Assembly: GCA_024704765.1 (NCBI GenBank)
Contig: JAKMXF010000210.1
Location: 528,121 to 592,120 of the forward strand
Direction: 5' to 3'
DNA: 64,000 nucleotides
Source: Oopsacas minuta
Lineage: Eukaryota > Animalia > Porifera
Made by a program: the position numbers and the translations under genes. Position 1 is the stretch's first letter; the number at the start of each line of letters is the position of its first letter. The notes under the pieces were generated by a model. That model was given only the letters and a program-made list of their open reading frames with translations, made no database searches and was not told the origin of the DNA. Shown here one piece after another: positions 1 through 47,700 of this stretch.

Positions 1-681
1 TGTGTGCTTACCAACCTCAATCGCACATGATTCTTAAATTAGCGAATGTTGTGTTTCACTACTGTCATGTGATAAATTCCCTTCGCTGTTTACATTGTGA
101 AGAATTCCATTCACATCCCTTTCAATGAAGCCAATTTTTATTGAACTTTCATTGCATAACATTATTTAAATGGTGTTACGGTATTATGATTTAATATATA
201 TATTGCATAGACTCAATTAATACGTAGTATCCCGAAATTATATTAAACTGTGTAATCGAAAGAGAATATGAAATCATTTAGTGTATTTGTTATATTACTA
301 CTACAGTATGCTATGAGCAATAGATCTACTATACTGTAAGTATATTGAAAGTAGTTATTCGACTTATGTTAAACTGGATATCTCATATAAATATTGCGAT
401 ATTAATCTTCATACAGCGTGACTGACTATACTCTGGGATGTTATTGAAATTGAAATTCATGGAGGATTAATTCTCACTCTTATGTGATGATTATATTACC
501 GTCTGTACGGTAAATTGACTTGTGTTTAGTTTTTTTATTATCTAATGGGAACTGAAAATCAAGTTGTAATAATATTGTGTACTCTATGTTTTTGTAAGCA
601 AATAATTCATATAAATAAAAGAAGCCAAACCTTTACATATAGCGGAAAATAATTAAAGCATTAACTATATTTGATAATATA

Positions 682-30600: not shown

Positions 30601-33600
30601 TGGATATGATAAGAAATCAACTTCTTATATATTGTATTATATGATTTTCTTAGGCCAGCATTGGTAAGCCTAAGACAGGCTTGAAGCCACTAGCGGGTAA
30701 TGTTCATAACGGACTGAGAATTCTATACACAGAAGATGAGCCTCTAGATCTTGCTGGGGTGTGTGACGTTACCAAACCACAGACTGGAATTACGTTTTTG
30801 TGTCCGAAGAGCAGTGAAACTTCTAAACTTGATTATCCACGGTTGATTGGGGTGGATATCAGTGGATGTATATTCGAATTTGAGTGGTACACAAAGCTAG
30901 CCTGTACTGAAACAGGAACACCTGTGTCTACTCCATGTGCTTTCCAGGACCCTGTTAGTGGATTTGTATTCTCTTTATTGTCTCTAGAAGGTACAACACC
31001 AGTGAAATATGATGGTGAGTTATTTTATACAATAAAACATCATAGAAATGCCGTGAGCACTTGAATACTTGAAGCAAAGTTTCGCGAAGTTTCGTACCTG
31101 AAAGGATATGCGCAAGGGTGCTTATTCAGTCAGAAAATTAGCCACGTATGCTCGTGAATTACTTAATTAACTTTTGCTGTAAAATTGCGCAAAAAAAATG
31201 CCCACGACAGGGATCGAACCTATGACATTCGGCTTATTAGACCGACGCTCTAACCAACTGAGCTACGTAGACAAATATTATATTTTAATTCTAATTCAAA
31301 ACTTTGTTAGTTGTCTTTCCAGTTCATCTAGACAAAAAGACTGCCCCCGACAGGGCTCGAACCTGTGACCTTGGGCTTATTAGACCCACGCTCTAACCGA
31401 CTGAGCTACGAGGGCAGATAATATTCCTTTCCAATTCACCAATTTTTATATCATGTTACAATTACACCCTTTCTATAGAGAATACAAACGCTGACTCTCC
31501 TTTCTTCTACCTATCTATATGCTCTACTATTGACTCAGATCTCCTTCAATCTTCTATAAACCCAAAGTCTGGGGCTGTTCTTCTTTACCCAAATACTGTA
31601 TCTGATGCTAAGAACTCGAGTTTAGGAGAAGCTAACTCAAACCTGTTGTACAGTGATAGTGAGCTAATACAGCTCAGATACATTGAAGGAAGTGCATGTT
31701 CAAGTGGCAAGGTTATGTATTAATGTTCACTTCCTTCATGAATACAATTGTTATTATTCTTATCGTTTTTCAGAAATCAACTCTAATCACCTTTGTGTGT
31801 TCACATCTTATAGCCTCGAGTGTGTCTTACATTAGCTCTCTGCCATCAGATGACACCTGTCTATTTGAGTTTGAATACAAGACAATCCTTGCTTGTCCTC
31901 CCATCACAACAGAATGTGTCATAACTTCTAATGATGGACAATTGTATGATCTTACCAGACTGAAGCAACTCTCTGGGACCGGGTTCCCTGTCTATATTTC
32001 TGGCCAGTATAGCGATATACCTCAATTATCTTCTCTACGAATTTCGGTGAGCAATGTTTAGCATACTACCGTTAGATATTCTACAATAGTTACGAGTGTA
32101 TGCATTAGATATGTCAACCATTGGAAGCTGGTAGTACCGAAACATGTACTAATGGATCTGCATCTTGTCTGAGCTATGACAATCATATATTCGATCTGGG
32201 ACATGTAACAGGAGACCTACAGCTGAGTCAGCAGGGAGAACTCCAGCTGATATACTCAGGAGGTACAGGTTGTAGTAAGAGCGCGCTTACAGTGATAACT
32301 TTTCGGTGTGATCGTAGTGTTGGAGTTGGACAGCCTCTTCTTAGTCTACATAGGAACACGAGTGGGTCTTGTTACTATGATATTGTTTGGGACTCTGAGT
32401 ATGCTTGTGCAGTATTACCCAGTGAGGAATCTAACTGTGCTGTGACAGATACAGATTCAGGTATTATACAAATATTATAGAATGTTGTGAGGTGATGATC
32501 TAAATACTTTTTCGGATTCTATATACATACTCTGAACTTATAAATATTTTCCATTAACCTGTCAAGGTAATTGAGTTATTCATTACTACTATACTGGCTT
32601 GAAACCTGTTATCTTTAGATATGTTATTACAAGATTTTACAACATCCTCTTATCTTACATATTCTTCTAGGATTTGTATATAACTTTACAAGTTTGAGTA
32701 AATTACCAGATATACACATACAACCTGACTCTACAGTTACCTCAGATGATTACAGCTTCACTATCTCTATTTGTCGTCCTATAACATCATCATGTGGAGA
32801 TGGTAGTGCTCATGCAGGAGCTTGTCAATATTCTGATAACACCCAGCATGTTACAGGTAAGATAACCTTATTACCATGACAGATATAGAATTATATTTGT
32901 GTTATTATGTAGGATTATATAGCTCTACACTTATACTGAGTGATGGAGAAGTTCAGCTGGTATATTCTGGGGGTCAAGCATGTCATAGTAACAATGTTAA
33001 CAGAACAACAATAATACGTTTCTATTGTGACAAGACAGCAACTTCTCCTCGAGCTGTAGTACTACCTGAATTGACACATTGTCTCTATGAAATTATGCTA
33101 TATACTAATCTAGCTTGTCCTCCTAGCCAACCTACGTTCAAATGCAATGCTAACAATCCTGATAACGGAAACACTTACGATCTGTCTAGCTTACAACACA
33201 AAGCTTATTTTGAAGTATACTCTACAGATAGTATTGTGTACTACTTTAGTGTTTGTAACCTTCTACCTTCTCAATATGGTAATAAGGGTGTACACTGTGT
33301 TACTGGTTCTAGCTTCTGTGTGTTACATAAGAACAGCAATAATGTGAGTATTTACTAAGTAGACTGTATCGTTAATAGAATGATGGTTACTAGTTTGTAT
33401 TGTAGATATGGAAAGCTACTAATCTCGGTACAATGACACACTCCCCTTACCTACTACGGGATAATCTTCTCCTACTCTCCTACTCAACTGAGGATGCGAA
33501 ATATAACACTACCGTGGGATTAGAGTGTTCTGAAGAGTCACAATCGGTTACAGATCCAATTCTTGTTTATCATAGTGCTGACTTTTCTACGAATATATTC

Positions 33601-36251
33601 TCATGGCTAACGCTAGCAGCTTGTCAGAGCGAGGCATCTGACAGCTGTCAAGTTGTGCAATACAGCACTGGATTTACTATAGACTTAGACAGCTTCAAAG
33701 CAGTTAGTATTCAGTCTCAATCTAATGACGTAGGAGATAAGTTAGCTATTTCTCTTTGTGGTGCTCTAACAGATCCTAGCTTAGGAGATTGCTATAGTAA
33801 TAACAATACTGCAGTGTGTTACTCAAAGGGTAGCGATCACTATCCTATTGCTACCTCTAATACTTCTAAATGGTTCTACGGAGATGAAATAGTAGTTTCT
33901 TATTATAATGGATTTAACTGTTTGGACCAATCTTCTCCATTCAAGAGCTCTGTAGAGCTTACGTTACAATGTGGTGATAGTGAAAGCCAATCATTCGTAG
34001 AGCCTTCTAATGAGTGTGTGTATCAGGTTCTATGGCAGAGTCCTCTGTTATGTCAGTATCAAGTTGAATGCAGTGTTACACATAACGGATATGATTACGA
34101 TCTGAATTGGCTGAAAGCATATGATAGCAATTGGAGAGTTAGTTTGTCTGATAAAAAATTTCTTATTAACGTGTGTCACAATCTATTGCCAGAAGAAACA
34201 CAAACTTGTGACAGTACAGCTGCTATTTGCATGATTAGTGGTAATCATGCAGTTAATTTAGGTCAGGTTACTAATGGGCCTCAGTATGTTAGTGAAGGAG
34301 CCCTTCAGATTGAGTATAAGAATGGAGATGAGTGTGGAGATGGGACATACAGTTCTACTATTCAGTTTAATTGCCAGAAAGGAGCTGATTTAGAAGATTA
34401 TATCACTCAATCAGTGAATGTAAGTTTATGCTAACACTATTTATTAAATACGTTTATTATATCTTCTTCTTGTTATAGGGGTGTCACTATATGTTCATCT
34501 GGGATACACACGTGGCTTGTGAAGATGCTGGAGGTACTATTATTGGTAAATGTGAGATAGAAGACACAGTAACAGGAGATGTATATGATCTTAAACCTAT
34601 TTTTGATGTAGGGATAATTAATGTCACTATTGAACCATTATTACAGATTATTGCTTGTCAAACTATAAAAAGGTGTGGAGGAGCGGTATGTTATGACAAT
34701 TCTATTAGCTATGGTAAATATACTGATTCTAGTCTCAAGTTAGTGAATCATGTCCCTACACTTGAGTACAAGGATGGTAGTCCTTGTGGTAACAGCAAGT
34801 ACAAGTCTAACATAGAATTTATTTGTAACAAGAGTGCAATAGATCACAAGTATGTAGAGCATTTGCCAATAGACGGTTGTATACACTATTTTTTATGGCA
34901 TACTCCATTAGCTTGTGCTTCTACTGTCACTGAGTGTAAACTGACAGTTGACAACCGTATAGTTGATATTACAGATTTGAATAGGAAATTTGGTGCTTGG
35001 GAGGTTGACGTGAAAGGTGATAAGTTATACTTTAATCCTTGCGCTGGTATGAGTTCTTTCTTGATTAACACAAATCTGAAGAGTGAATCTTGTTCCTCTG
35101 ACTCTCTTGCTTGTCTTCTATCGAAAGAAACTTTGCAAGAAGTAGGAGCTCTGGACACAGCTGTTCTTAAACTCAGTATAGATGGAAAATATCCTATAGA
35201 AACAGCTCGTAGCCAAACTAAATGTATTCTTGATAAATCTAAAACAAAGTCAATTCAAATACTCTTCTATCCAGGCTCTGCTATGATAGAAACTCCTGTA
35301 TTCCAGGGTCTCCATCGTACAACTAGCTCATGTGTGATTAGTATTGTATTCAGTACTTCTCTAGTCGGAGAATCTTCTCCTATCAATGAACATAATGAAC
35401 TTATAACCACAGAGACACCAGGAACATGTCATAATGTACTTGTGAAGCTGAATAAAAATAAGGATTATCACATAAGTAGTGATTTGAATGGAGAAACTCT
35501 TGATTTCTACGTAAATTTCTGTTCACATACAAGTGTGGAAGGTTGCAAAGAAGGTACAGTGTGTCTCATAAGGACTCAAGGTAGTAAAAAATCCGATCCA
35601 ATTGCTCTCAGTTCTTATAAAAAACAGAGAATAAATGCTGTTAATAATTCTTATATAGAATTAATCATTAGTTCTGTTAACAAGTCATGTCCATTTACAA
35701 ATAAACACATCCTTACAGTATTCTATATATCTTGTTCTTCCCACTATACCGCAGTGAGTATTGAATTCGAATTCACTTCTCCTACAGGCTGTCTCTATGT
35801 ATTCAATGTGTTAGCGCCTTCATCAGTTTGTCTTTCATACGAACCTACTGATGCGCCTCCTGGAGAATCTATAAATAGCGCTGGTAAGACTGCTGTCGTG
35901 TTTATTGTAGTCCTGATTGTTTGTTTGTTAGGGATATTCCTTGCTATCCTAATCACACTCTGCTTCTATAAGCGCTCTACCAAGGGCGATCGCATGTTCT
36001 ACAAGCTTAGAGCTTATCTCTCTCGTGTACCAGACGTACAGTTTAGATTCCAGAAGGTTGACGGATCTGAAATGGGTCATTTGATTACTAATATGAGTGG
36101 GAGTGAGTCTGAGGATGAAACTGTATCTGAGATTGGACCTGTGGGTACAAGAATTGAGCCTGCTGGGTTGGACAAGTTTTCTATTTCTGATCCTCCTGCT
36201 GGAAAAGAGGGAGGAGATGGTTCTGAAGATGAAGATTTTATTAAACTCTGA
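27684..36251 (+). CDS. IGF2R: cation-independent mannose-6-phosphate receptor-like giant receptor with about 15 MRH repeats, 15 exons, about 2376 aa
   Basis: Phase-checked exons: 27684-28049, 28110-28562, 28624-28929, 29049-29526, 29585-29853, 29916-30248, 30290-30592, 30654-31014, 31479-31711, 31774-32046, 32109-32460, 32671-32856, 32913-33343, 33406-34419 and 34479-36251. They total 7131 nt, in frame. It has a signal peptide and repeated MRH-type modules with recurring motifs (C..Y.F.W.T..AC, VxFxCD/K, GD.C). One TM helix (AVVFIVVLIVCLLGIFLAILITLCFY) is followed by a cytoplasmic tail ending GSEDEDFIKL, an acidic-cluster dileucine motif like CI-MPR sorting signals. All introns are GT-AG and 41-465 bp long. 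Confidence 0.8.
29890..29907. repeat. (ATT)6 microsatellite inside a 62 bp intron of the receptor gene
   Basis: Read directly from the sequence. Confidence 0.7.
31199..31272 (-). tRNA. tRNA-Ile (anticodon AAU)
   Basis: Reverse complement GTCTACGTAGCTCAGTTGGTTAGAGCGTCGGTCTAATAAGCCGAATGTCATAGGTTCGATCCCTGTCGTGGGCA. It folds as a cloverleaf: 7 bp acceptor stem with two G-U pairs; D-arm GCTC/GAGC; anticodon loop CTAATAA (anticodon AAT); T-arm with GGTTCGATCC; discriminator A. It lies inside intron 8 of the receptor gene. Confidence 0.85.
31342..31415 (-). tRNA. tRNA-Ile (anticodon AAU), second copy
   Basis: Reverse complement GCCCTCGTAGCTCAGTCGGTTAGAGCGTGGGTCTAATAAGCCCAAGGTCACAGGTTCGAGCCCTGTCGGGGGCA. 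Same cloverleaf and the same anticodon loop CTAATAA. It is 70 bp from the first copy, same orientation, same intron. Confidence 0.85.
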
Positions 36252-36424: not shown

Positions 36425-37660
36425 ATGCTAGCCGAAATATACCTTTATACTATACATCGAGAGGTTGTCATGTCCTTAACTTTGAAGCAAATTTGTCAAA
36501 TCTATTATATTGCTTTCCTCCTATCTTATTCTATGAGAGTTTCCTGTGAATTCATCCCCCCATCTAATCAGATATGTATGGACGAATCTATTACTTTTGA
36601 TTGTTTACTTACTGGAACTTTTCCAACTGTACAATTATTTGTCCTCAATAATACAACAATCAATTTATTTCAATTAAATAATATTGATAGTTTCTTCGGG
36701 ATAGATCTAACCCGTCTAAGTGCTACAGTTGATAATACTCTAGATCAGAATACAGGTCTGTACACATTACTCCGTGCTAACATTACACTTGTAAATATTA
36801 CAAAGGGAGATAATGGTACACTGATAGGATGTACTGCAACTACTTCTGGTAATGTTTTACTGGAAGATTCAGATACTCTTTATCTAGCTTCTCCTCCTTC
36901 TGAACTTGACATTATATTATCCCCTATACCCTCTAATTGTAGTGTTAAAGTATCATGGACTTATCCTATACAGTCTACTCTACCTATAACTGAAGAGATT
37001 ACAGATTCTGTTACTAACATTATTACTTATGATCGGGTATATTTCTCGAACTTCCTAACAGCTGGACAAGATTATACTTACACTTTAACTACCAGCAACT
37101 GTTTAGGAGACTCTATAACAGCTGATACTCAGCTGTTCTCTCTTCCTTCTCAACCTGATGCTTACACCTGTTCTGCTAAATATGGGTCTGAAAATAGAAT
37201 ACTAGTTTTACAGCTGTTTGGCTATACTTCTGAGTATGCTATTGAGACTAGTTTTACATTATCTGAAGACAGTGATAATACCATTAATTTGTCTGATACT
37301 TTTACTGAACCACGTTACTATTCTAAACAGATGTTTAATCTACCATCAACAAGAAACTATACAGTTATGTTTACATCTATATTGAGAGATTGTATTAGAT
37401 CCCTGCAAACAACTTGTGAAACCAAACTTAATATTACTGCTAGAGTTACACCAAATCCCTCCCCTCCTCCCTTAACGAATACATTCGTAACCACCAGTCC
37501 TTCCACATGTAATTATATTCTCAATACCAATGACTTTAGTATATTTAATGCAATGTTCTGGGTTAGTATCATTGGGTCGATTTTGCTGTGTTTCCTCAAT
37601 ATTACCGTTTGTATTAGTTTTATTTTAATCTGTCTGAACCAATTTAGACTGGTGTTTTGA
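36425..37660 (+). CDS. Ig-like/FN3-like single-pass glycoprotein, paralogue A (short tail)
   Basis: ORF of 411 aa; the likely real start is the in-frame Met at 36470 (MSLTLKQICQIYYIAFLLSYSMRVSCEF, signal-peptide-like). The Ig-like module is ITFDC...DNGTLIGC (a D.G.Y.C-like motif). The FN3-like module is PSNCSVKVSWTYP...YTYTLTTSNCLGDS. There are more than 15 N-x-S/T sites, a C-terminal TM helix and a very short tail. Outside two variable patches it is over 90% identical in nucleotides to copies B and C. Confidence 0.55.
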   Translation: MLAEIYLYTIHREVVMSLTLKQICQIYYIAFLLSYSMRVSCEFIPPSNQICMDESITFDCLLTGTFPTVQLFVLNNTTINLFQLNNIDSFFGIDLTRLSATVDNTLDQNTGLYTLLRANITLVNITKGDNGTLIGCTATTSGNVLLEDSDTLYLASPPSELDIILSPIPSNCSVKVSWTYPIQSTLPITEEITDSVTNIITYDRVYFSNFLTAGQDYTYTLTTSNCLGDSITADTQLFSLPSQPDAYTCSAKYGSENRILVLQLFGYTSEYAIETSFTLSEDSDNTINLSDTFTEPRYYSKQMFNLPSTRNYTVMFTSILRDCIRSLQTTCETKLNITARVTPNPSPPPLTNTFVTTSPSTCNYILNTNDFSIFNAMFWVSIIGSILLCFLNITVCISFILICLNQFRLVF

Positions 37661-37767
37661 TACGTTTGTATATTTTGAGCATTTTAAAGCTATCTTTGTA
37701 TTATAATTTCAGCTAATCAATTGAATTGAATATATTTAATGAGTGACTTATATATTTAGCTTTTCCA

Positions 37768-39117
37768 ATGAATAACCTACTCTTACTTCTACTCTTATTA
37801 TCCCTCTTGCTATGTTATATGAGAGTTTCCTGTGAATTCATCCCTCCATCTAATCAGATATGTATGGACGAATCTATTACTTTTGATTGTTTACTTCCTG
37901 GAACTTTTCCAACTATACAATTATTTGTCATCAATAATACAACAGTCAATTTATTTCAAATAAATAATATTGATAGTTTCTTCGGGATAGATCTAACCCG
38001 TCTAAGTGCTACAGTTGATAATGCTCTAGATCAGAATACAGGTCTGTACACAGTACTCCGTGCTAACATTACACTTGTAAATATTACAAAGGGAGATAAT
38101 GGTACACTGATAGGATGTACTGCAACTACTTCTGGTAATGTTTTACTGGAAGATTCAGATACTCTTTATCTAGCTTCTCCTCCTTCTGAACCTGACATTA
38201 TATTATCCCCTATACCCTCTAATTGTAGTGTTAAAGTATCATGGACTTATCCTATACAGTCTACTCTACCTATAACTGAAGAGATTACAGATTCTGTTAC
38301 TAACATTATTACTTATGATCGGGTATATTTCTCGAACTTCCTAACAGCTGGACAAGATTATACTTACACTTTAACTTCCAGCAACTGTTTAGGAGACTCT
38401 ATAACAGCTGATACTCAGCTGTTCTCTCTTCCTTCTCAACCTGATGCTTACACCTGTTCTGCTGAATATGGGTCTGAAAATAGAATGCTAGTTTTACAGC
38501 TGTTGGGCTATACTTCTGAGTATGCTATTGAGACTAGTTTTACTTTATCTGAAGACAGTGATAATACCACTAATTTGTCTGATACTTTTACTGAACCACG
38601 TTACTATTCTAAACAGATGTTTGATCTACCATCAACAAGAAACTATACAGTTGTGTTTACATCTGTATTGAGAGATTGTATTGGATCCCTGCAAACAACT
38701 TGTGAAGCCAAACTTATTATTACTGGTATAGTTACACCAACTTCCCCCCCTATTCCAACACCTACTCCCTCCATGACTATTCCAACTCAGAGTCCACAGG
38801 ATTACCTAGTATACATCATAATAGCAGTAGTTCTCTTCCTACTGTTATTATTCCTATCTTTTGTTATAATCTTGCTTACTTGTCTACTAAACAGAGGGAA
38901 AATATTCAGAAATAGAACTTCTCCTCAGAATGCTAAGGGTTTTTCTAAGCGGGTTGCAGCTCCCGCGAAAATCTCTGATTCAAATGAAAACGGGGATGAG
39001 CTAAATTACCTAAAACCAGAATTTGGTTCCAATCCTAAGAAACCTAATGCTCCTATCCCTAAGACTCTGTATGCAGATATTAAGCATATGCCTTCTGACT
39101 ACGCTACCCTACAGTAG
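37768..39117 (+). CDS. Ig-like/FN3-like single-pass glycoprotein, paralogue B, with an ITAM-like cytoplasmic tail
   Basis: ORF of 449 aa. The signal peptide is MNNLLLLLLLLSLLLCYMRVSC and the ectodomain matches A. A Pro/Thr-rich stalk is followed by the TM helix YLVYIIIAVVLFLLLLFLSFVIILLTCLL. The tail ends ...LNYLKPEF...KTLYADIKHMPSDYATLQ. The segment YADI-x6-YATL matches the canonical ITAM YxxI/L-x(6-8)-YxxL, and SDYATL also fits an ITIM-like pattern. Confidence 0.75.
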   Translation: MNNLLLLLLLLSLLLCYMRVSCEFIPPSNQICMDESITFDCLLPGTFPTIQLFVINNTTVNLFQINNIDSFFGIDLTRLSATVDNALDQNTGLYTVLRANITLVNITKGDNGTLIGCTATTSGNVLLEDSDTLYLASPPSEPDIILSPIPSNCSVKVSWTYPIQSTLPITEEITDSVTNIITYDRVYFSNFLTAGQDYTYTLTSSNCLGDSITADTQLFSLPSQPDAYTCSAEYGSENRMLVLQLLGYTSEYAIETSFTLSEDSDNTTNLSDTFTEPRYYSKQMFDLPSTRNYTVVFTSVLRDCIGSLQTTCEAKLIITGIVTPTSPPIPTPTPSMTIPTQSPQDYLVYIIIAVVLFLLLLFLSFVIILLTCLLNRGKIFRNRTSPQNAKGFSKRVAAPAKISDSNENGDELNYLKPEFGSNPKKPNAPIPKTLYADIKHMPSDYATLQ

Positions 39118-39420
39118 TTATGCCTTTGTACTTGTTAGTGGTTTTATTCTTATCTAAGGTATTAATTCAGCTTAAATCTAATCCTGCTGGTATGACCTAT
39201 TAGTAATTATCCTCCCCCTTCTCTACTAAATGGATTTATATTGAATTGTTTATTTCTTTACTTTCTTTGTATAATATCTAGTGAACTGTTTACCTTATAT
39301 AACTTGTATGTATAGGATATGTAGTATTTGTTTGTTGTTTTGTTTACTTTATAATAATCATACTATCCAGAATTATTTGCACAACCAAACAATTCATATC
39401 TTCGTTCATTTTCTTACTAG

Positions 39421-39540
39421 TTAGCTATGGCTAGCACTACATGTCCACATGTAACTAACCAAGGTCTAGAGATGGATCTTGGTAACTTATCGGCTACTGA
39501 CATAGATTTCCATCTAACTAATGAGGGAGGCTGTGTTTCC
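39421..39540 (+). pseudogene. duplicated 5' fragment of RRS1 (ATG plus 39 codons), fused at the duplication junction to copy-A tail sequence
   Basis: Segment 39421-39540 is near-identical to 41101-41220 (MASTTCPHVTNQGLEMDLGNLSATDIDFHLTNEGG). It then reads into CVSSILPFVLVLF stop, a 48-codon chimeric ORF. Confidence 0.7.
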
Positions 39541-39711
39541 TCAATATTACCGTTTGTATTAGTTTTATTTTAATCTGTCTGAACCAATTTAGACTCGTGT
39601 TTTGATACGTTTGTATATTTTGAGCATTTTAAAGCTATCTTTGTATTATAATTTTAGCTAATCAATTGAATTGAATATATTTATGACTGATTTATTTATT
39701 TAGCTATTCAA

Positions 39712-40680
39712 ATGAATAACTTACTCTTACTTCTACTCTTATTATCCCTCTTGCTATGTTATATGAGAGTTTCCTGTGAATTCATCCCTCCATCTAATCA
39801 GATATGTATGGACGAATCTATTACTTTTGATTGTTTACTTCCTGGAACTTTTCTGCTTGTACAAGTATTTATCGTCAATTCTACACTAGTCAATTTATTT
39901 CAAATAAATAATATTGATAGTTTCTTCGGGATAGATCTAACCCGTCTAAGTGCTACAGTTGATAATACTCTAGATCAGAATACAGGTCTGTACACAGTAC
40001 TCCGTGCTAACATTACACTTATTGATATTACCAAGGAAGATAATGGTACACTGATAGGATGTCAAGCGACTAATTCTGATAATGATTTAATTGAAGTTTC
40101 AGATACTCTTTATCTAGCTTCTCCTCCTGAACTTGACATTATATTATCCCCTATACCCTCTAATTGTAGTGTTAAAGTATCATGGACTTATCCTATACAG
40201 TCCACTCTACCTATAACTGAAGAGATTACAGATTCTGTTACTAACATTATTACTTATGATCGGGTATATTTCTCGAACTTCCTAACAGCTGGACAAGATT
40301 ATACTTACACTTTAACTTCCAGCAACTGTTTAGGAGACTCTATAACAGCTGATACTCAGCTGTTCTCTCTTCCTTCTCAACCTGATGCTTACACCTGTTC
40401 TGCTGAATATGGGTCTGAAAATAGAATGCTAGTTTTACAGCTGTTGGGCTATACTTCTGAGTATGCTATTGAGACTAGTTTTACTTTATCTGAAGACAGT
40501 GATAATACCACTAATTTGTCTGATACTTTTACTGAACCACGTTACTATTCTAAACAGATGTTTGATCTACCATCAACAAGAAACTATACAGTTGTGTTTA
40601 CATCTATATTGAGAAATTGTATTGGATCCCTGCAAACAACTTGTGAAACCAAACTTAATATTACTGCTTTAGTTCTATGA
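39712..40680 (+). CDS. Ig-like/FN3-like glycoprotein, paralogue C: truncated before the TM helix, either a secreted form or a young pseudogene
   Basis: ORF of 322 aa with the same signal peptide as B. Local indels near 40655-40680 create a stop (...CETKLNITALVL stop). Downstream remnants of the TM and tail are readable in other frames (LPYYLTYIIIAVVLYAF stop; ...MPSDYATLQ stop at 40780-40806). Relative to B, about 260 bp covering the TM helix and most of the tail are deleted. Confidence 0.55.
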   Translation: MNNLLLLLLLLSLLLCYMRVSCEFIPPSNQICMDESITFDCLLPGTFLLVQVFIVNSTLVNLFQINNIDSFFGIDLTRLSATVDNTLDQNTGLYTVLRANITLIDITKEDNGTLIGCQATNSDNDLIEVSDTLYLASPPELDIILSPIPSNCSVKVSWTYPIQSTLPITEEITDSVTNIITYDRVYFSNFLTAGQDYTYTLTSSNCLGDSITADTQLFSLPSQPDAYTCSAEYGSENRMLVLQLLGYTSEYAIETSFTLSEDSDNTTNLSDTFTEPRYYSKQMFDLPSTRNYTVVFTSILRNCIGSLQTTCETKLNITALVL

Positions 40681-41113
40681 ACTCCCTCCCTTACCTCCAT
40701 GACTACAAACACAGGTTTACCACCTCAGAGTCTACCGTATTACCTAACATACATCATAATAGCAGTAGTACTCTATGCCTTCTGACTACGCTACCCTACA
40801 GTAGTTATGCCTTTGTACTTGTTAGTGGTTTTATTCTTATCTAAGGTATTAATTCAGCTTAAATCTAATCCTGCTGGTATAACCTATTAGTAATTATCCT
40901 CCCCCTTCTCTACTAAATGGATTTATATTGAATTGTTTATTTCTTTACTTTCTTTGTATAATATCTAGTGAACTGTTTACCTTATATAACTTGTATGTAT
41001 AGGATATGTAGTATTTGTTTGTTGTTTTGTTTACTTTATAATAATCATACTATCCAGGATTATTTGCACAACCAAACAATTCATATCTTCGTTCATTTTC
41101 TTACTAGTTAGCT

Positions 41114-42248
41114 ATGGCTAGCACTACATGTCCACATGTAACTAACCAAGGTCTAGAGATGGATCTTGGTAACTTATCGGCTACTGACATAGATTTCCAT
41201 CTAACTAATGAGGGAGGTGTTCCTAATGAGCAGGAGTTATTGAACAGATCACAACAATGTGTTCAAACAATGTTCAGTCAGCTGTCTAAACTTCCTCACG
41301 AGAGAGACGGACATCTGTCAGTTGTCAAACTACCTGAACCTAAAACCCAGCTTCCAAGATATCAACCTCTTCCTCAACCTAAGCCTCTGACTAGATGGGA
41401 GAGATATTCCAAAGAGAAGGGAGTGAGTAATAAGAAGAGGAGTAGGATGGTGTGGGATGAAGGAGGACAGGAATGGAAACCAAGATGGGGATACAAGAAG
41501 GCTAGTAAGAGACCAGAGGATCAGTGGTTGGTTGAGGTAAGTACTAAGTTATTACTTATATATTAGATTAATTCTATCAATTATTATGCTATTAGATTCC
41601 AGACCAGAAGGATCCATATGAAGATTACTTTGAGAAGGCTAAAGAAGAGAAGAGAGAGAGGGTAGCTAAAAATGAGTACCAGAGAGTGAGGAACCTTATG
41701 AGAGACCATGAGGGTAAAATTAAAGCTCCACACCTCCTCACAAATCAGGGACAGAAAGGAGGAAGGAAGGAACTTAATATGATGACTAGCCTTGCAAAGG
41801 TTTCTACTCCATCTCTTGGAAAGTAAGTATTAGCTATATACACGTAGTTGTGATAATATTTATCTTCTGATATATTTATAGGTTTAGTGAGAAAGTTAAA
41901 GGAGAACCTAAATCCATCCGTGGGCAGAAGAGAAGGTTTGATCCTGTGTTAGGAGATTTAAAATCAGAACGAGACAAACAGTTGAAACTCTTAGAAACAA
42001 TATCAAGAGATAAACCCATAGTGAATGTTAGTAAAGCAGTCAACAGGTATATTGATAAGAAACAGAAGTCTAATAGACAGACAGAGGATAATTATGATAA
42101 TGAAGATACACAACCAAGACATAAAAGTAAGTTTGGTAAAAAGATGAAAGGGAAAACTCCCTTGAAAACGAAACTACCTAAAGCAGGTAAGAAAGTTGAG
42201 AAAAAACTGAAAAGATTGCAACAGACGAAAAGAAGAATGAAACTTTAG
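41114..42248 (+). CDS. RRS1: ribosome biogenesis regulatory protein Rrs1 homologue, 3 exons, about 338 aa
   Basis: Exons 41114-41536 (donor GAG|GTAAGT), 41596-41822 and 41882-42248. The translation contains ...KPLTRWERYSKEKGVSNKKRSRMVWDEGGQEWKPRWGYKKASKRPEDQWLVE|IPDQKDPYEDYFEKAKEEKRERVAKNEYQRVRNLMRDHEG...KVSTPSLGK|FSEKVKGEPKSIRGQKRRFDPVLGDLKSERDKQLKLL..., collinear with Rrs1. Confidence 0.85.
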
Positions 42249-42481: not shown

Positions 42482-44209
42482 ATGTGGCTGTTTGACAGGT
42501 TTGTGCTATTCCGCGCGTTCTCATTGCGAGGGTTTCTCAATGATCTCCCGAGATACATTTTCGTGACTTTATGGATGCTTACGAATATCGGCCTATTTAT
42601 TGGGTTCTTTGTGCAATTTGAAACGTTCCCTCGATATTTCTACTTCCGTATGATTAGCCGTCAGGGTCTATCGTTTGCAAGAGCTCCTGCTGCTGTTATT
42701 AACTTCAACTCTATGCTTATTCTATTACCGGTGTGTCGGAATTTAATCTCGATTATCCGTGGAACATGTTTTCGTTGCTCTCGTAGTCTACGGAAAGCTC
42801 TTGACAAGAACATCAGTTACCACAAGCTATTTGCTTGGACTATCATTTTCTGCTCAGTCATACACACTGCTGCACATTATTACAACTACGAGTTTATCAT
42901 AACTGATGCTGCCAGTCCACAACGCTTCGAACAAGTTCCTTCTAATCCCCTAAGGAACAATCCTCTTATCTATCTTCGTCTGTTAGAGAATAGGTCTCTC
43001 GTCCTACCTCTTGATGCAGTCCTCTTAAACTACATGACGTATGCAGGTATAACAGGTCACATAATGTGGCTTATACTATTTCTAATGGCAACTTCTTCTG
43101 TTGAAGTTATACGTAAGAGTTTCTTCGAAATATTCTGGTATACTCATCACCTGTTTATTTTCTATTTTATTGCGCTTGGTATCCATCAGTTTCAAATGAT
43201 ACTTCCATTTCAATCCAATGTGGATGTGAGTGATCCTTTCAACTGCTCTAGATTACCTGTGGATACTACAGGTGAAGGGTGTGAAATATTGCCTACCTTT
43301 ACCGCTGCTCGCCCTAGTTCCTATAAATGGTTTGTTATCCCACTAGCTATCTATCTTGTAGAGCGATTGATCCGATTCATAAAGAGCCTTATTCCTGTAC
43401 AGATTGTTCATGTAGAAGAACATCCTTCTAGAACACTTGAGATTCGTATGAAACGTAGGTTCTTCCGTCAGGATGTAGGTCAGTATGTGTTCGTTAATAT
43501 TCCATCCATCAGCTTTCTAGAGTGGCACCCTTTCACACTCACTTCCTGTCCAGAGGACAATCCAGAATTCAGTGTCCACATCAGAATTGTAGGAGATTGG
43601 ACAGAAGCCCTGCTTAAGAAAGTTAGACAGAAGGGATCTAATGTTCGTAGCACTATAATTACTATTGATGGCCCTTTTGGTACAGCAAGTGAAGATGTGT
43701 TTGATTATGAGATAGCTATGCTGGTAGGAGCTGGTATCGGTGTAACTCCTTTCGCTTCTATTCTGAAATCGATTTATCATAAACGTAAGAATATGAACCT
43801 TAAGAAATTATCTCAGATATATTTCTTCTGGGTGTGCCCACAGCCTCAGTCATTTGAATGGTTTGCTACTCTCCTCAAAACGATTGAGAAATCTCTCCAA
43901 GATGAAGGTTGTCCAGATCTCATTAAGTATGAGATTTATCTAACTCGTGGATGGACTGCAGCGGAAGCACGAAATATCTACCTCCATGAGGACGACATTG
44001 AAGATCCGATCACCCGTTTGGGAGCTAAGACTAACTACGGACGACCTAAATGGGATGAGATATTCGCTACCATTGCTGAAAATCACTCTAAAAAGAAGGT
44101 GGGTGTGTTCTTCTGTGGACCGCCTATACTTTCAAAAGAACTACACTTCCAAGCTAACAAACACTCTACCAATAACTGTAGCTTTTCTTATAACAAAGAG
44201 AATTTCTAG
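42482..44209 (+). CDS. NOX: NADPH oxidase (NOX1-4 type catalytic subunit, no EF hands)
   Basis: Intronless ORF of 575 aa. It has a six-TM ferric-reductase domain with paired His residues; the FAD-binding HPFTLTS; the NADPH-binding GIGVTPFASILKS; and a C-terminal FFCGPP. There is no N-terminal EF-hand or peroxidase domain. Confidence 0.85.
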   Translation: MWLFDRFVLFRAFSLRGFLNDLPRYIFVTLWMLTNIGLFIGFFVQFETFPRYFYFRMISRQGLSFARAPAAVINFNSMLILLPVCRNLISIIRGTCFRCSRSLRKALDKNISYHKLFAWTIIFCSVIHTAAHYYNYEFIITDAASPQRFEQVPSNPLRNNPLIYLRLLENRSLVLPLDAVLLNYMTYAGITGHIMWLILFLMATSSVEVIRKSFFEIFWYTHHLFIFYFIALGIHQFQMILPFQSNVDVSDPFNCSRLPVDTTGEGCEILPTFTAARPSSYKWFVIPLAIYLVERLIRFIKSLIPVQIVHVEEHPSRTLEIRMKRRFFRQDVGQYVFVNIPSISFLEWHPFTLTSCPEDNPEFSVHIRIVGDWTEALLKKVRQKGSNVRSTIITIDGPFGTASEDVFDYEIAMLVGAGIGVTPFASILKSIYHKRKNMNLKKLSQIYFFWVCPQPQSFEWFATLLKTIEKSLQDEGCPDLIKYEIYLTRGWTAAEARNIYLHEDDIEDPITRLGAKTNYGRPKWDEIFATIAENHSKKKVGVFFCGPPILSKELHFQANKHSTNNCSFSYNKENF

Positions 44210-44709: not shown

Positions 44710-47700
44710 ATGAGGAATCTCCAGTTATTCTCCTGTGGGAGTTATCATTTATTGAGGGGGATTTTCGCTATTGATGCTGATACAGGTGATATTTGGTTGA
44801 TAAGCGATAGTTTGAAACTGTTTTGTTACAAAGAATTGGGAAAAACTTGCAAGGAACATGTTAATCTATCTCTTGAAGCAAATCTTGAATCTTCTAACGC
44901 TGTTATAAGTTTAGATTATGTATTAGACTTAGAATCTGTGTATTTCGCTCTTAGAAATGGAGACATATACAAGTTCTCTGTTGAATCAGACGAGCTAGAT
45001 AATATTGGTTCTGTAGCTTGTGGTTTAGAGTGTGCTGTGTGGAGTCCTGATCAAGAGATTATAGTGCTAGTCTCTACAGAAGGGAAAGTTGTAATGCTTA
45101 GTAAAAACTGTGATCCTATTTCAGAATCTAACCTTTTAACTGGCGAATTCGGGGAAGCTAGTCCTATAGTGCTAGGATGGGGGAAGAGAGAGACTCAGTT
45201 CAAAGGGAAAGCTGGTAAATATGTAGATTTAAAGGATAAAGATAGTCAAGAATCTGTCAATATTCTGACAAGTGATGACAGGAAGGTTAGAATCTGTTGG
45301 AGAGGTGATGGGCAGTTTTTTGCTATTTCCTTTGTAAATATTTCAAAGGGTTTAAGAGAAATTAAGATATTCACCCGTGAGTGTGTGCTACACGCCACAA
45401 GTGAATCTGTTGCTGGTATCGGTCAGTCTCTATCTTGGAAACCTTCTGCTAACCTAATAACAACCAACCGTACTTCACACAGACAGGAGATTGTATTCTT
45501 TGAGAAGAATGGTTTGAGGTATGGAGAGTTCTCTCTACCCTGTCATGTTACAGAATATTTTGTGAGAGAGGTTGAATGGAATTCTAATTCTACGATACTT
45601 CTAGTACTGTTAGAGCCTCTGATTTCAGATACTAAAACTCTAGTTCAGCTATGGACATGTAACAACGCCCATTGGTACCTCAAACAAGAGATTTGCTTCC
45701 CATCTGTTAGCTCTCCTACACTAATCAGATGGAATACTATACAGCCTAATACTCTACATATTCTAACACAATCTGGCTCTTATCTTACTTACGAATTGAG
45801 AACTGTTGTAACTCAGTCAAATGAGTATGATAACTGGATAGCAGTGATTGACGGCTGTAGAGTATTGCTATCTCCATTTCGTGATCTTACAGTACCTCCC
45901 CCAATGTCCAGCTGTTCTGTGGAGTTGAGTAGACCCGTTATAGAGGTTATTTTCGGGAGAGAAGAATACAAAGATAGAATTCTTTGTCTGTTATCTAACT
46001 ATACAATAATAGAATTAAAACACAGCAAATCAGATGGAAATATAAATAATTCTGAATTCTTAGACAAGACAGGATTTTATAGCTTATCTAAACCATTCCA
46101 TTTCAGAGATAATACTACAGATATTTCATATCACACTATACGACATATCCAGTGGATAACTGTATATTTATTATTAGCTCTATCTTATAGCAGTGATGCC
46201 AAAGAACATAAGATAGAGCTTTATAATATTCTGAGTGAGGAGAGAGAAATTGTTCTTGTATCAGTTGTTACTACAATAAAACCTATTCTAACACTCATAT
46301 CTTGTTCCGATAGTTTAGCTGTAGAATTCATAGATGGAGAGGTGAACCGTGTTAGTTGTACTAACGAAACACTCTCGTTACAACCTTGGGTTAACTTGCT
46401 CTATCCATCACATCGCATTAGTATAGCTAGGTTTTCTGGAGAGGAACATATTTTGGGATTCACTGTTAACGGGAGATTGTTTCTAGACACAATTGAGTTA
46501 TGTTCTAATGCGACGTCTTATTACCTTCATAGTCACTTCCTTCTAATCACTACCAGTAGTCACTATTTACACTCAATCAATCTATCTACACCAATATATG
46601 AGCTACCAGCTATTCTACCTACTCAGTCTCATACAACTAATGATGCTGTACGTAGAGTAGAGAGAGGAGCAGAGATTATAACCGCAGTTAGTAACGATAG
46701 CAAAGTTGTTCTCCAGATGCCCCGTGGTAACCTCGAAGCCATTCATCCACGTGCTCTGATTCTAACCATTATAGCTAAGCTTCTAGACAATAGAGAGTAT
46801 TCTGTAGCATTTGCTATCCTTCGTAGGCAAAGAATAAATATGAATTTATTTCATGATTATAACCCTGAAATATTTATAAGTTCAATTCATGATTTCATAA
46901 CACAAGTCCACCAGCCTCAGTTCTTGAATATTTTCATAACAGAGCTATCAGATCAAGATATTTGTACTACGATGTATCCTAACATGAAGAGACATGTCAC
47001 TAATATTAATAGTGAGAATAAAGTTAACTCTGTGTGTGATATCATGGTAGAAACTTGTGAGAAAGCTAATAATACTAACTTATATCTGCTGCCTATATTA
47101 ACCGCTCTGATTAAGAGATCTCCGTCTCAGCTAGGAGAGGTTTTAACCCGAATTAAGAACATACCAGTAACAAGCAAAACTTCTCAAGAAGATGCTCTCA
47201 AATATATTTCTCTCCTTATTGATATGAAGCAGTTATATAAGGTAGCATTAGGTACTTATGACTTTGATATTATGTTACTTGTAGCCCAGAACTCTAATAT
47301 GGATCCTAAAGAGTATCTTCCTTTCATGAATAATCTCAAATCTCTAGAAGAAAATTACAGAGCTTATTTTATAGATTGTCATCTCTGTAAATATGAGAGT
47401 GCATTAGTACATATCCTGAAGTGTAGAGGCCGTGAGGAGGAATGTATCGCTTTTATCAATAAGCACGAGTTGTATAGCAAAGCATTAGAACAGATCCCTA
47501 CAGGAGATGGTGAGCTTATTCAAAGGGTCTCTTTGGCTTATGGGAATTGGCTTTGTTCAAAGGAGAAGTATCCTGAAGCTGGACTTGTATTTATACAAAT
47601 TGGAGAGCTCGCATTGGCCCTCAAAGCTTATAGAAAGAGTGATAACTATCATCGAGTACTATCACTTGCACTTCAACTTAATTTGCCAAAAGATTCATTC

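Follow-up and report, generated by a model that had tools for sequence, protein, structure and literature searches.

A candidate paired-receptor locus in the glass sponge Oopsacas minuta, with tail-less and tailed membrane glycoproteins whose ectodomains evolve in concert

The locus described here has, side by side, genes of a glass sponge whose products share one extracellular part and differ in the way they end. The window (the whole 64-kb stretch of Oopsacas minuta DNA that was analysed) contains three intronless paralogous ORFs in tandem, A, B and C (Table 1). DNA self-comparison paired 36529-37465 (A) with 37815-38751 (B) at 97.1% identity, 36529-37470 (A) with 39759-40698 (C) at 94.2%, 37585-38836 with 39530-40774 at 93.9%, and 39087-39534 with 40774-41220 at 99.3%; no segmental duplication besides these four pairings and no extra receptor copy was found in the 64-kb window. 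The three tandem copies reported by the initial annotation were thus borne out by ORFs and self-comparison, as were their differing C-termini (A near tail-less, B tailed, C stopped by a TGA in the stalk). The signal peptide that it had described as common to all three is shared by B and C, and A has its own. ORF B matches a portion of NCBI KAI6655209.1 (LOD99_2497) with 100% identity, and gene C corresponds to KAI6655210.1 (LOD99_2498), whose annotation begins at an internal Met. The start of A was moved from 36425 to 36470, most likely the true initiation codon (ATG), because orthologous A-type signal peptides align there.

Table 1. Coordinates, in the window, of the features of the three genes and of the duplicated segments
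Feature	Position	Strand	Remarks
Gene A	36470-37660	+	A-type, tail-less, 396 aa; ORF list
A signal peptide	36470-36547	+	A-specific; MSLTLKQICQIYYIAFLLSYS...
Homogenised tract in A (gene conversion)	36529-37465	+	Mature ectodomain; partners 37815-38751 (B), 39759-40698 (C)
A S/T/P stalk	37433-37534	+	After Ig-FN3-D3 ectodomain
A hydrophobic C-terminal anchor	37535-37636	+	FSIFNAMFW...ILICL, 34 aa, then 7 residues NQFRLVF
Duplication unit 1	37585-39534	+	A anchor CDS 3' end, spacer, B, 3' flank, first ~107 nt of RRS1 CDS copy
Gene B	37768-39117	+	B-type, tailed, 449 aa; ORF list
B signal peptide	37768-37833	+	Shared with C; MNNLLLLLLLLSLLLCY...
B D1, V-like Ig	~37834-38175	+	AF2 model and fold searches
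D1 region where C departs from A and B	37910-38153 (B coordinates)	+	Two clusters
B D2, FN3	~38176-38433	+	AF2 model and fold searches
B D3, beta-sandwich	~38434-38733 (aa 223-322)	+	AF2 model and fold searches
B stalk	38734-38802	+	
B TM helix	38803-38889 (aa 346-374)	+	
B cytoplasmic tail	38890-39114	+	75 aa; contains YADIKHMPSDYATL at aa 435-448
Tail motif ELNYLKPEF	38998-39024	+	Consensus E-L-x-Y-[ILM]-x-P-x-F; best-conserved tail block
Tail motif TLYADI	39064-39081	+	Consensus T-x-Y-x-x-[ILM]; ITSM-like, also fits YxxPhi sorting form
Canonical ITAM string YADI-KHMPSD-YATL	39070-39111	+	Second half YATL specific to O. minuta
Pseudo-RRS1 5' fragment	39427-39530	+	MASTTCPHVTNQGLEMDLGNLSATDIDFHLTNEGG; joined at duplication junction to A-anchor fragment
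Duplication unit 2	39530-41220	+	A-anchor CDS fragment, spacer, C, 3' flank, real RRS1 start
Gene C	39712-40680	+	322-aa ORF, B-type duplicate; ORF list
C stop TGA	40678-40680	+	In-frame, within stalk
Degenerate C remainder	40681-40804	+	In-frame stalk and TM start (TPSLTS...YLTYIIIAVVL), 250-bp deletion junction, out-of-frame MPSDYATLQ*

A, B and C follow a common plan (signal peptide, V-like Ig domain, FN3 domain, third beta-sandwich, mucin-like stalk), in which the third extracellular domain is an addition to the Ig and FN3 modules first proposed. Pfam HMMs stayed below threshold for all 17 family members; the folds were supported by structure search and by the family profile, which matches FN3 repeats via D2 (E down to 2.6e-16), including 17 stretches in one protein having 17 Pfam fn3 stretches. 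In the AF2 model, pLDDT was 85-94 for D1 and low (about 40) for D2. Among the listed Foldseek matches at E<=1e-3, all were tandem beta-sandwich arrays and almost all Ig/FN3 receptors (gp130, IL-23R, LepR, contactin and PTPdelta among them). Together with 9 N-x-S/T sequons in the B ectodomain, these results uphold the description of an Ig-like and FN3-like type I membrane glycoprotein. The V-like Ig domain of the A and B products is membrane-distal and the stalk is of O-glycan type. The best whole-ectodomain matches were tall class I cytokine receptors (gp130, IL-6Ralpha, IL-23R, LepR Ig-CRH2), which likewise begin with an Ig-like domain, continue with two FN3-type domains and cross the membrane once, but TM-scores were low (0.2-0.3) with 10-13% identity; the WSxWS and four-cysteine patterns were not visible in the aligned sponge sequences, and Box1 was not recognised.

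A search returned O. minuta LOD99_2497/2498 and 14 ENA relatives, and a profile search among 1.84 billion (1.84e9) representatives gave only about 6 full-length relatives, confined to ENA assemblies with hexactinellid synteny (a fragment, P0018, was unplaced), in agreement with the suggestion of a lineage-specific, unnamed family. One cluster includes Vazella pourtalesii transcripts of B-type, the only transcripts found for the family. Eight other hexactinellid contigs, apparently from six species, have an A-type and then a B-type gene in the interval from CI-MPR to RRS1-NOX-ELP1, and the order CIMR - A-type(s) - B-type - RRS1 - NOX - ELP1 - cyclin was read in L001-L004, L006, L008, L009 and the window; one haplotype (L005) has a single hybrid gene in place of the pair. 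The A/B split is older than the divergence of the sampled species. A diversifying multigene family, as initially envisaged, is not what was found: copy number is 1-3 genes per haplotype, paralogues are homogenised within each genome, and dN/dS among them (0.5-3.3) does not depart significantly from 1 in any comparison.

Within each genome, A and B share ~85-100% nucleotide identity over the ~960 bp of the ectodomain (66% in the lowest 60-nt window), and identity falls sharply to about 40% on either side, in O. minuta as in L001-L004 and L006. Between species, ectodomain protein identity is 45-69%, versus 83-90% for NOX. In NJ trees, ectodomains cluster by species (bootstrap 80-100) and C-termini by type (84-100), which indicates concerted evolution. 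In every genome, recurrent gene conversion or unequal crossing-over keeps the mature ectodomain DNA of A and B near-identical while the signal-peptide, stalk, anchor and tail segments remain type-specific, and the same recombination yields hybrid genes and copy-number variants. Such hybrids are L002 A2 and a frameshifted middle copy of L003 (B-type 5' end, A-type 3' end), and assembly ERZ25072740 has two contigs 98-99% identical, one with A and B, the other with a single gene of A-type 5' and B-type 3' sequence. Together with this heterozygous haplotype that has one gene and the raised divergence between haplotypes, the hybrids show that recombination is ongoing. Tract boundaries lie at nearly identical positions in six lineages, suggesting selection against conversion of signal peptide, anchor and tail. 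No significant positive selection was detected in dN/dS among paralogues or between species (0.36-0.54).

The reading that we prefer, with a probability of roughly 0.6, is that of a hexactinellid-specific locus for paired type I membrane glycoproteins, receptors with one ectodomain, a shared ligand and different outputs. The likeness to paired-receptor clusters proposed initially is stronger than it had seemed, a tail-less/tailed pair being syntenic at every hexactinellid locus examined, with an ectodomain evolving in concert. By analogy, A and B may act as receptors that bind one fast-changing ligand through D1; B would signal via tyrosine phosphorylation and SH2-domain effectors, and A would be a non-signalling competitor or decoy, or would use its conserved anchor to couple with a partner. 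This is the way in which vertebrate paired receptors operate. Against this reading, tandem genes can show concerted evolution without selection, the L005 haplotype means that both forms are not obligatory per chromosome, and the vertebrate hallmarks (a charged TM residue in A, a conserved canonical ITIM/ITAM in B) are missing.

A possible, though unlikely, alternative is that A and B are self-recognition, adhesion or allorecognition molecules and not pathogen or ligand sensors; the ectodomain would bind itself, or A would bind B, in trans between syncytial sponge tissues. Concerted evolution would preserve the fit between the two partners, and alleles would diverge from one individual to another. 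D1 has its best structural matches in a set that includes homophilic IgCAM domains (OBCAM, NCAM, nectin-like, Kirrel, MPZ), its variation is concentrated around the BC and FG loops, allorecognition occurs in hexactinellids although the demosponge Aggregation Factor genes are absent (PMC5400394), and the Alr allodeterminants of Hydractinia are also cryptic Ig and Fn3-like proteins with Tyr-motif tails (PMC9546547). The receptor ectodomain also diverges more between haplotypes (dS 0.055-0.088, dN 0.033-0.054) than neighbouring genes do (dS 0.016-0.040, dN 0.003-0.014), a comparison of two haplotype pairs, each from a single assembly that is perhaps not one individual. Set against this, allelic dN/dS is 0.4-0.8, below 1, and exchange between paralogues can by itself inflate allelic divergence. 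Known allodeterminants, moreover, carry tens to hundreds of alleles.

The C-termini bear on a second alternative. In the predicted proteins, A-types have their own signal peptide, a conserved hydrophobic C-terminal anchor and no cytoplasmic tail. In B-types a plain TM helix leads into a tail of ~70-85 aa, in which two tyrosine motifs are conserved. The A-type C-terminus carries [ILV]F[NSY]x[MV]FW in all ten proteins seen, followed, after the hydrophobic stretch, by 2-8 residues in 9/10 (11-14 in P0014 and P0055); a charged TM residue is absent from A, with merely an Asn in 7/10 A-type anchors. In the tails, YxxP occurs in 8/8 B-types and in L006, the column entropy of ELxY[ILM]xPxF (0.62) is as low as that of the Ig core, and TxYxx[ILM] is found in every B-type (strict TxYxx[VI] in 6/8 plus L006). 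The A terminus could be a GPI-attachment signal instead of a TM helix, and the locus might then encode one adhesion or receptor molecule in two anchoring forms, its ectodomain identity a neutral by-product of tandem homology, with no opposing signals implied. Few trailing residues, an omega near 1 among paralogues and a one-gene hybrid haplotype tolerated when heterozygous agree with this, but it is improbable, as the A anchor with its FNxMFW is conserved in all species (unusual for a cleaved GPI signal), the near-constant tract boundaries imply selection, and the tail motifs match the Ig core in conservation. The NCAM and contactin IgCAMs offer the parallel of an Ig and FN3 architecture in tail-less and tailed membrane forms, and D1 superposes on Ig1 of NCAM, contactin and OBCAM. 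The anchoring forms of NCAM arise by alternative splicing of a single gene, whereas those of the sponge are two genes in concerted evolution; the sponge protein, unlike these IgCAMs, has a single Ig domain, and GPI anchoring of A is putative.

Copy C derives from B through a recent tandem duplication and is not a third conserved class; it has no counterpart in the other species examined, so that the activating, tail-less and soluble classes initially distinguished are not supported. Its origin in O. minuta was a tandem duplication, mediated by microhomology, of 1.95 kb running from the end of A through B into the start of RRS1; C then gained its stop codon and a 250-bp deletion (corresponding to B 38837-39086, aa 357-440). 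The second unit begins with 24 codons of the A anchor (39531-39602, 100% identical), and the true RRS1 starts at ATG 41114 (Pfam identification at 41114-41566). In D1, 24/39 C-specific sites fall in clusters at 37910-37943 and 38077-38153 (aa 48-59 and 104-129; BC loop/C-C' strands and E-F/F-G hairpin), with a 3-nt indel 30 nt downstream at 38183-38185; across species, too, D1 varies most in its FG-loop block. C is most likely a pseudogene, and could at most serve as a secreted ectodomain or as a store of D1 variants on which conversion could draw. It is quite improbable that C is a second B haplotype set in tandem by the assembler, which would leave O. minuta with only A and B, like most others: the hybrid assembly was built by SPAdes from Illumina and PacBio CLR reads without haplotig purging (PMC10280926), identity in the duplicated flanks is 96% (5') and 99% (3') and the interior differences are allele-like, but the junction of RRS1 CDS to A-anchor CDS, with microhomology and no Ns, needs reads across a novel adjacency, comparable three-gene arrangements occur in other species, and low heterozygosity is expected in the sampled population.

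The ITAM noted in B does not extend to the family, in which no canonical ITIM or ITAM is conserved among B-type tails; the canonical string occurs in 1/9 tailed orthologues (O. minuta B only) and a long-spacer version (YTDI-x11-YAYI) in one distant species (L006), and the two tyrosine motifs above are what is conserved of the tail tyrosines. The view of an ITAM-signalling, diversifying immune-type family with B activating, A tail-less and C soluble is accordingly very doubtful, since, although shuffling the O. minuta B tail yields an ITAM in just 0.2-0.5% of cases, the distant species has its own version and the Ig and FN3 folds are confirmed, 7/9 B-type tails lack an ITAM of either spacing (the second tyrosine being absent), C is unmatched and degenerate, the 1-3 genes are homogenised and positive selection is not significant.

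Among cnidarians, the IgSF genes of the Hydractinia Alr (allorecognition) complex resemble the paired sponge receptors proposed here in being a non-bilaterian, lineage-specific, clustered family, with Ig domains missed by sequence HMMs and recognised by structure prediction, an Fn3-like membrane-proximal fold, a type I TM, ITAM/ITIM strings in a subset of the tails, and a cluster that includes pseudogenes (PMC9546547). They differ in the size of the family, tens of genes and pseudogenes, and in the diversity of its ectodomains and tails, where the sponge has 1-3 genes with homogenised ectodomains, and no sequence relationship to Alr appeared in the profile search, whose strong-E-value matches were all hexactinellid. 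Gene-converted vertebrate paired receptors (PMC5701461; see also PMC4042635, PMC2832619 and PMC5112662), such as Siglec-11/16, Siglec-5/14, CEACAM1-related pairs and CD300A/C, are likewise linked genes with near-identical Ig-type ectodomains and differing TM/cytoplasmic parts, in which conversion is independent per lineage, grouping follows species for the ectodomains and type for the tails, the converted region is under relaxed constraint, and non-functional copies lie in the cluster. Unlike them, the sponge genes are single-exon and without sequence homology, the ectodomain comprises Ig, FN3 and a third domain instead of Ig only, the tail-less member lacks a charged TM residue and a known DAP12/FcRgamma-type partner, the tail has YxxP and TxYxx[ILM] and no conserved ITIM/ITAM, and immune cell lineages are not known in the sponge host. 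The neighbouring A/B pair of glass sponges, putatively of receptors, is previously undescribed, and its layout, a tail-less and a tailed protein with matching ectodomains, is otherwise known from the immune "paired receptors" of vertebrates.

The main new result is the concerted evolution of the A and B ectodomains. In the window, which comes from the glass sponge Oopsacas minuta, the ORFs of the three receptor-like genes A, B and C are arranged head to tail (see table), and DNA self-comparison detected no segmental duplication in the 64 kb other than the A/B/C repeats; additional receptor copies were searched for in the 64-kb window and none was found. Within each genome, A and B DNA are ~85-100% identical over precisely the mature ectodomain (~960 bp; lowest single 60-nt window, 66%), and beyond it, over the signal peptide and 5' flank as well as over the stalk, anchor and tail, identity drops abruptly to ~40%; on contig L006 the block of identity takes in the signal peptide too. 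This combination of near-identical ectodomains with differing transmembrane (TM) and cytoplasmic parts was observed in the window and on L001-L004, L006, L008 and L009 (hexactinellid contigs from ENA assemblies). Between species, ectodomain protein identity is 45-69%, and that of the neighbouring proteins is 83-90% (NOX), 64-94% (RRS1) and 62-87% (CI-MPR). Neighbour-joining trees cluster the ectodomains by species (bootstrap 80-100) and the stalk/anchor/tail regions by type (84-100). The identity blocks and the discordant trees therefore indicate that the A/B split predates these species, and that the ectodomain has been homogenised repeatedly by gene conversion or unequal crossing-over. In every lineage the tracts have almost the same end points, implying selection that keeps the termini of the A-type (tail-less) and B-type (tailed) genes distinct.

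Coordinates and gene content of the receptor locus (window nucleotides, or residues of B where marked aa)
Feature	Position	Strand	Description
CI-MPR (cation-independent mannose-6-phosphate receptor), last exons	33433-36251		upstream of A
Gene A	36425/36470-37660	+	intronless ORF
Gene B	37768-39117	+	intronless ORF, 449 aa
Gene C	39712-40680	+	intronless ORF, 322 aa
RRS1	41114-		downstream of receptor genes
NOX-type NADPH oxidase	42482-44209		downstream of receptor genes
ELP1	44710-48585		downstream of receptor genes
Cyclin	49781-50776		downstream of receptor genes
Repeat	36529-37465 = 37815-38751		97.1%, DNA self-comparison
Repeat	36529-37470 = 39759-40698		94.2%, DNA self-comparison
Repeat	37585-38836 = 39530-40774		93.9%, DNA self-comparison
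Repeat	39087-39534 = 40774-41220		99.3%, DNA self-comparison
Spacer upstream of B and C	37585-37738 = 39530-39683		99% identical
3' flank downstream of B and C	39087-39426 = 40774-41113		99% identical
RRS1 coding-start copy	39427-39530		between B and C; 104 nt, 35 codons, ATG intact
B signal peptide	aa 1-22		
B D1	aa ~23-136		
B D2	aa ~137-222		
B D3	aa ~223-322		
B stalk	between D3 and TM		S/T/P-rich
B TM helix	aa 346-374		
B cytoplasmic tail			75 aa
Receptor genes, L001 and L004			A, B
Receptor genes, L002 and L009			A1, A2, B
Receptor genes, L003			A, frameshifted A-like copy, B
Receptor genes, L006 (more distant species)			A, B
Receptor genes, L008			A, B
Receptor genes, L005			single gene

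Several copies combine A-type and B-type ends. The A2 gene of L002 and the middle copy of L003 are hybrids with a B-type 5' flank and signal peptide and an A-type anchor. Assembly ERZ25072740 contains two contigs that are 98-99% identical, L008 with A and B and L005 with one gene, in which an A-type signal peptide is joined to a B-type tail; the L005 gene is the reciprocal deletion product. All these copies are direct traces of non-allelic recombination.

Gene order was compared over the window, L001-L006, L008 and L009, the distant species of L006 included, and all retrieved loci agree: CI-MPR comes first, followed by the A-type gene(s), the B-type gene, RRS1, NOX, ELP1 and cyclin. On L005 (11000-12800), the one-gene haplotype, the sole NOX call is a 206-aa fragment accompanied by small ORFs in opposite orientation; on L008 (10979-12703) NOX is intact (574 aa). 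The DNA of the two is colinear at 98.8%, so that a frameshift, a nonsense mutation or a sequencing error is the probable cause. The genes of this conserved block are compact with very short introns; for instance, ~56 nt separate the CI-MPR ORFs at 34434 and 34491. In searches of a 5.8-billion-protein set and in an exhaustive profile search of 1.84 billion representatives, full-length relatives were confined to O. minuta and to ENA assemblies of the same gene order; a further profile search of the 5.8-billion-protein set gained only a fragment, P0054. One family cluster holds Trinity transcripts of Vazella pourtalesii (Hexactinellida) of the B-type, which identifies a taxon and shows B-type transcription. 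A literature search returned no account of this receptor family in hexactinellids. In one species, the remote paralogue P0033 occurs away from the paired locus, at an unrelated site (L007 8001-9113, assembly ERZ25069837); the receptor family may be older than the paired locus. P0033 matches the family profile at E 8.5e-5, resembles the family in its D1 motif (GVDLSRYS...DDENTLIGC), carries a TM helix with a tail of 11 residues, and lies next to OTU, CD36, thrombospondin-repeat and I-set genes.

The initial annotation had proposed an Ig-like and an FN3-like module, to be verified by HMMER/Pfam and structure prediction. Pfam gave no significant family for A, B or C or for any of the 17 aligned family members; the folds were therefore tested by other means. 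The first domain (D1) has a V/I-set beta-sandwich topology and superposes on solved Ig domains. In the family alignment, C41 is nearly invariant and C117, K108, D110, N111 and T113 are invariant, and the AF2 model places the two cysteines on strands 37-47 and 114-120, i.e. the B and F strands. The KxDNxT..C motif on the predicted F strand is D-x-G-x-Y-x-C-like, its DNGTLIGC form being one residue longer than the classical one. Pfam ig reached E = 0.1 in one of the 17 members, under the cut-off, and the Ig matches of a PDB profile search (JAM-A, SYG-2, TrkC) were all sub-threshold (E 0.02-0.1). AF2 performed poorly on full-length B (mean pLDDT 53); on the ectodomain alone, pLDDT was 85-94 for D1, ~65 for D3 and ~40 for D2, an improvement for D1 and not for D2, whose model is of low confidence (~40-55 over both models). 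With both models, the Foldseek matches listed at E<=1e-3 are essentially Ig/FN3 receptor ectodomains only, the best being gp130 D1-D3, IL-23R, LepR Ig-CRH2 and IL-6Ralpha, together with contactin FN1-3, PTPdelta Ig-Fn, Axl and RAGE.

For the second domain (D2), the family profile was searched against 1.84 billion representatives and, outside the family, matched FN3-repeat proteins through D2 (positions ~130-240). P0019 (E 2.6e-16) has 17 matched stretches and 17 Pfam fn3 stretches, and in P0023 the profile matches 1345-1441, where Pfam places an fn3 at 1344-1421; UniRef labels both O. minuta proteins of the family as 'Fibronectin type-III domain-containing'. No family member has a Pfam fn3 match, and hhalign of the ectodomain profile with fibronectin FN10 gave the correct register in a non-significant match (Prob 0.4). 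The Foldseek, D2 profile and D1 model results taken together, the Ig-like and FN3-like assignments hold, and D1 belongs by its predicted fold to the immunoglobulin superfamily; a third beta-sandwich domain (D3) is present in addition. A class I cytokine receptor was considered for the gp130 and IL-23R matches and rejected, as the WSxWS and four-cysteine pattern is lacking (two Cys in D2, three in D3, no W-S-x-W-S in any aligned member); the likeness is in domain order and fold only.

The C-terminus of A consists of the stalk, a hydrophobic segment of 34 residues (FSIFNAMFW...ILICL) and seven further residues. The anchor motif [ILV]F[NSY]x[MV]FW is common to all A-types, as are the TM and tail to all B-types. 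K, R, D and E are absent from the A-type anchors, and 7/10 have an Asn. With its 2-8 trailing residues, the A-type hydrophobic stretch fits a GPI signal loosely; it is ~30 residues long with a sequence kept across species, and GPI signals have 15-20 hydrophobic residues. The mucin-like stalk varies freely in length and sequence, from species to species and between A and B, and the stalks of L003 A (P0016) and L006 A (P0017) contain short tandem peptide repeats (e.g. TTTPPYTVV ~3x, TTPHFSFSLTT 2x).

The B gene of O. minuta encodes a canonical ITAM, YADIKHMPSDYATL (aa 435-448; YADI-KHMPSD-YATL), under the pattern Yxx[LI]-x6-8(12)-Yxx[LI], which arises in 0.2-0.5% of shuffles of this tail. Initially taken as a feature of the family, the ITAM is not shared: its second tyrosine is missing from seven of the nine B-type tails, the sole other ITAM-like tail is the long-spacer YTDI-x11-YAYI of L006, and elsewhere in the window A is without a tail and that of C is deleted. 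Two other tail motifs are conserved, E-L-x-Y-[ILM]-x-P-x-F, which is of YxxP type (column entropy 0.62, as low as the Ig core), and the ITSM-like T-x-Y-x-x-[ILM], which matches the YxxPhi form of sorting signals as well. On general knowledge of phosphotyrosine motifs, these are candidate SH2-docking sites. A conserved ITIM ([SIVL]xYxx[IVL]) was not found in the B-type tails, the only instance being SDYATL in O. minuta.

Paralogue-pair dN/dS (Nei-Gojobori, five species) lies between 0.5 and 3.3, with few differences per pair, and in no case exceeds 1 significantly; orthologue dN/dS is 0.36-0.54 (Nei-Gojobori). There being no significant non-synonymous excess, diversifying or positive selection is not claimed, and with ectodomains that are homogenised, the diversifying multigene family of the initial annotation is not upheld. 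Between contigs of single assemblies that are taken as haplotypes of one individual (two pairs), receptor ectodomains have dS 0.055-0.088 and dN 0.033-0.054, and flanking genes of the same two pairs have lower values (dS 0.016-0.040, dN 0.003-0.014). Across species, D1 varies most in the block of the FG loop (aa 121-130).

The best-supported reading is that of an IgSF receptor pair specific to this lineage, in which one member is tail-less, the other has a Tyr-motif tail, and both share a putative ligand-binding ectodomain maintained by gene conversion. Its closest known analogues are the vertebrate paired receptors, such as Siglec-11/16 and the related cases of Siglec-5/14 and the CEACAM pairs. 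The locus resembles these in its linked genes with near-identical ectodomains and different TM/cytoplasmic regions, and in the lineage-specific gene conversion that keeps the ectodomains similar; it differs in that B is without a conserved ITIM or ITAM and tail-less A without a charged TM residue. The sponge genes have no sequence homology to Siglec-11/16, Siglec-5/14 or the CEACAM pairs and are not members of these families. The ligand-binding region of Siglec-11/16 was reported to have undergone gene conversion in every primate examined, with relaxed constraint and a non-functional allele serving as conversion donor (PMC5701461). Compatible with such a pair, the sponge proteins might act in self-recognition or allorecognition, a possibility that we regard as tentative, with the odds against it. 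It is favoured by the IgCAM-like D1, by the raised haplotype divergence in the receptor ectodomains, by the allorecognition shown by hexactinellids although they are without the demosponge Aggregation Factor genes (PMC5400394), and by the parallel with Hydractinia Alr, whose proteins combine cryptic Ig domains with an Fn3-like fold and tails of ITAM/ITIM kind (PMC9546547).

Copy C is a tandem duplicate of B. The unit 37585-39534, comprising the coding end of the A anchor, the spacer, B with its 3' flank and ~107 nt from the start of RRS1, is repeated as 39530-41220, and at the junction (~39531) an RRS1 5' fragment (MASTTC...TNEGG) is fused to the last 24 codons of the A anchor, with a microhomology of few bases and no Ns. 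That C is an assembly artefact, a second B haplotype set in tandem, is quite improbable: C is known from one assembly, a SPAdes hybrid with unpurged haplotypes, but the novel junction speaks against it. The RRS1 coding-start copy is a by-product of the duplication, and its frame differs from that of the anchor codons it abuts. C terminates at a TGA within the stalk, past which the stalk and the TM start are still in frame, and a 250-bp deletion (= B 38837-39086, aa 357-440) removed the remaining TM and the tail. C is a damaged duplicate, and the three functional classes initially proposed, with C as a soluble form beside an activating B and a tail-less A, are not supported. As the flanks of both units are near-identical, its putative promoter and 3' end are intact and the coding region is damaged.

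Although the duplicated flanks are 96% (5') and 99% (3') identical, there are 39 sites at which C matches neither A nor B, 24 of them in two D1 patches (aa 48-59 and aa 104-129) that span the BC/C-C' region and the E-F/F-G hairpin. Post-duplication mutation cannot account for these patches. C may retain an older or other D1 variant, B having been converted later by A, or may have taken up a conversion from a divergent allele.

The gene models currently deposited at NCBI for this locus are wrong. ORF B is part of KAI6655209.1 (LOD99_2497) at 100% identity, and ORF C matches KAI6655210.1 (LOD99_2498). LOD99_2497 (P0001, 592 aa; window 37100-39117) is a chimera of the C-terminal half of A and the whole of B, its predicted intron joining A (...NCLGDS to ...TTSPST) to B and bypassing the A anchor; the first half of A apparently has no protein annotation at NCBI. 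LOD99_2498 begins C at an internal Met, so that the signal peptide is missing from the model. The family also escapes domain-based surveys, because Pfam misses its Ig and FN3 domains.

We put at roughly one in five the probability that a polymorphic system of paired receptors for self/non-self discrimination arose independently in glass sponges. In such a system, tailed and tail-less genes would share a V-like domain for ligand binding, which gene conversion keeps matched and whose CDR-like loops differ among haplotypes and species; truncated, C-like copies would donate D1 variants, and the role would be in tissue fusion in a syncytial animal or in symbiont or pathogen recognition. Paired receptors, with matched ectodomains and divergent signalling ends that gene conversion keeps in step, are considered a hallmark of innate immunity in vertebrates, shaped by host-pathogen conflict. 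Paired-receptor logic in glass sponges, apparently in seven species, would make it a recurrent animal solution rather than a vertebrate speciality; if true, this would be its earliest-branching animal example and a candidate for the hexactinellid allorecognition system. With its hybrid genes, heterozygous copy-number variant and raised haplotype divergence, the locus offers the study of recognition in Hexactinellida a small, concrete candidate that is accessible to experiment.
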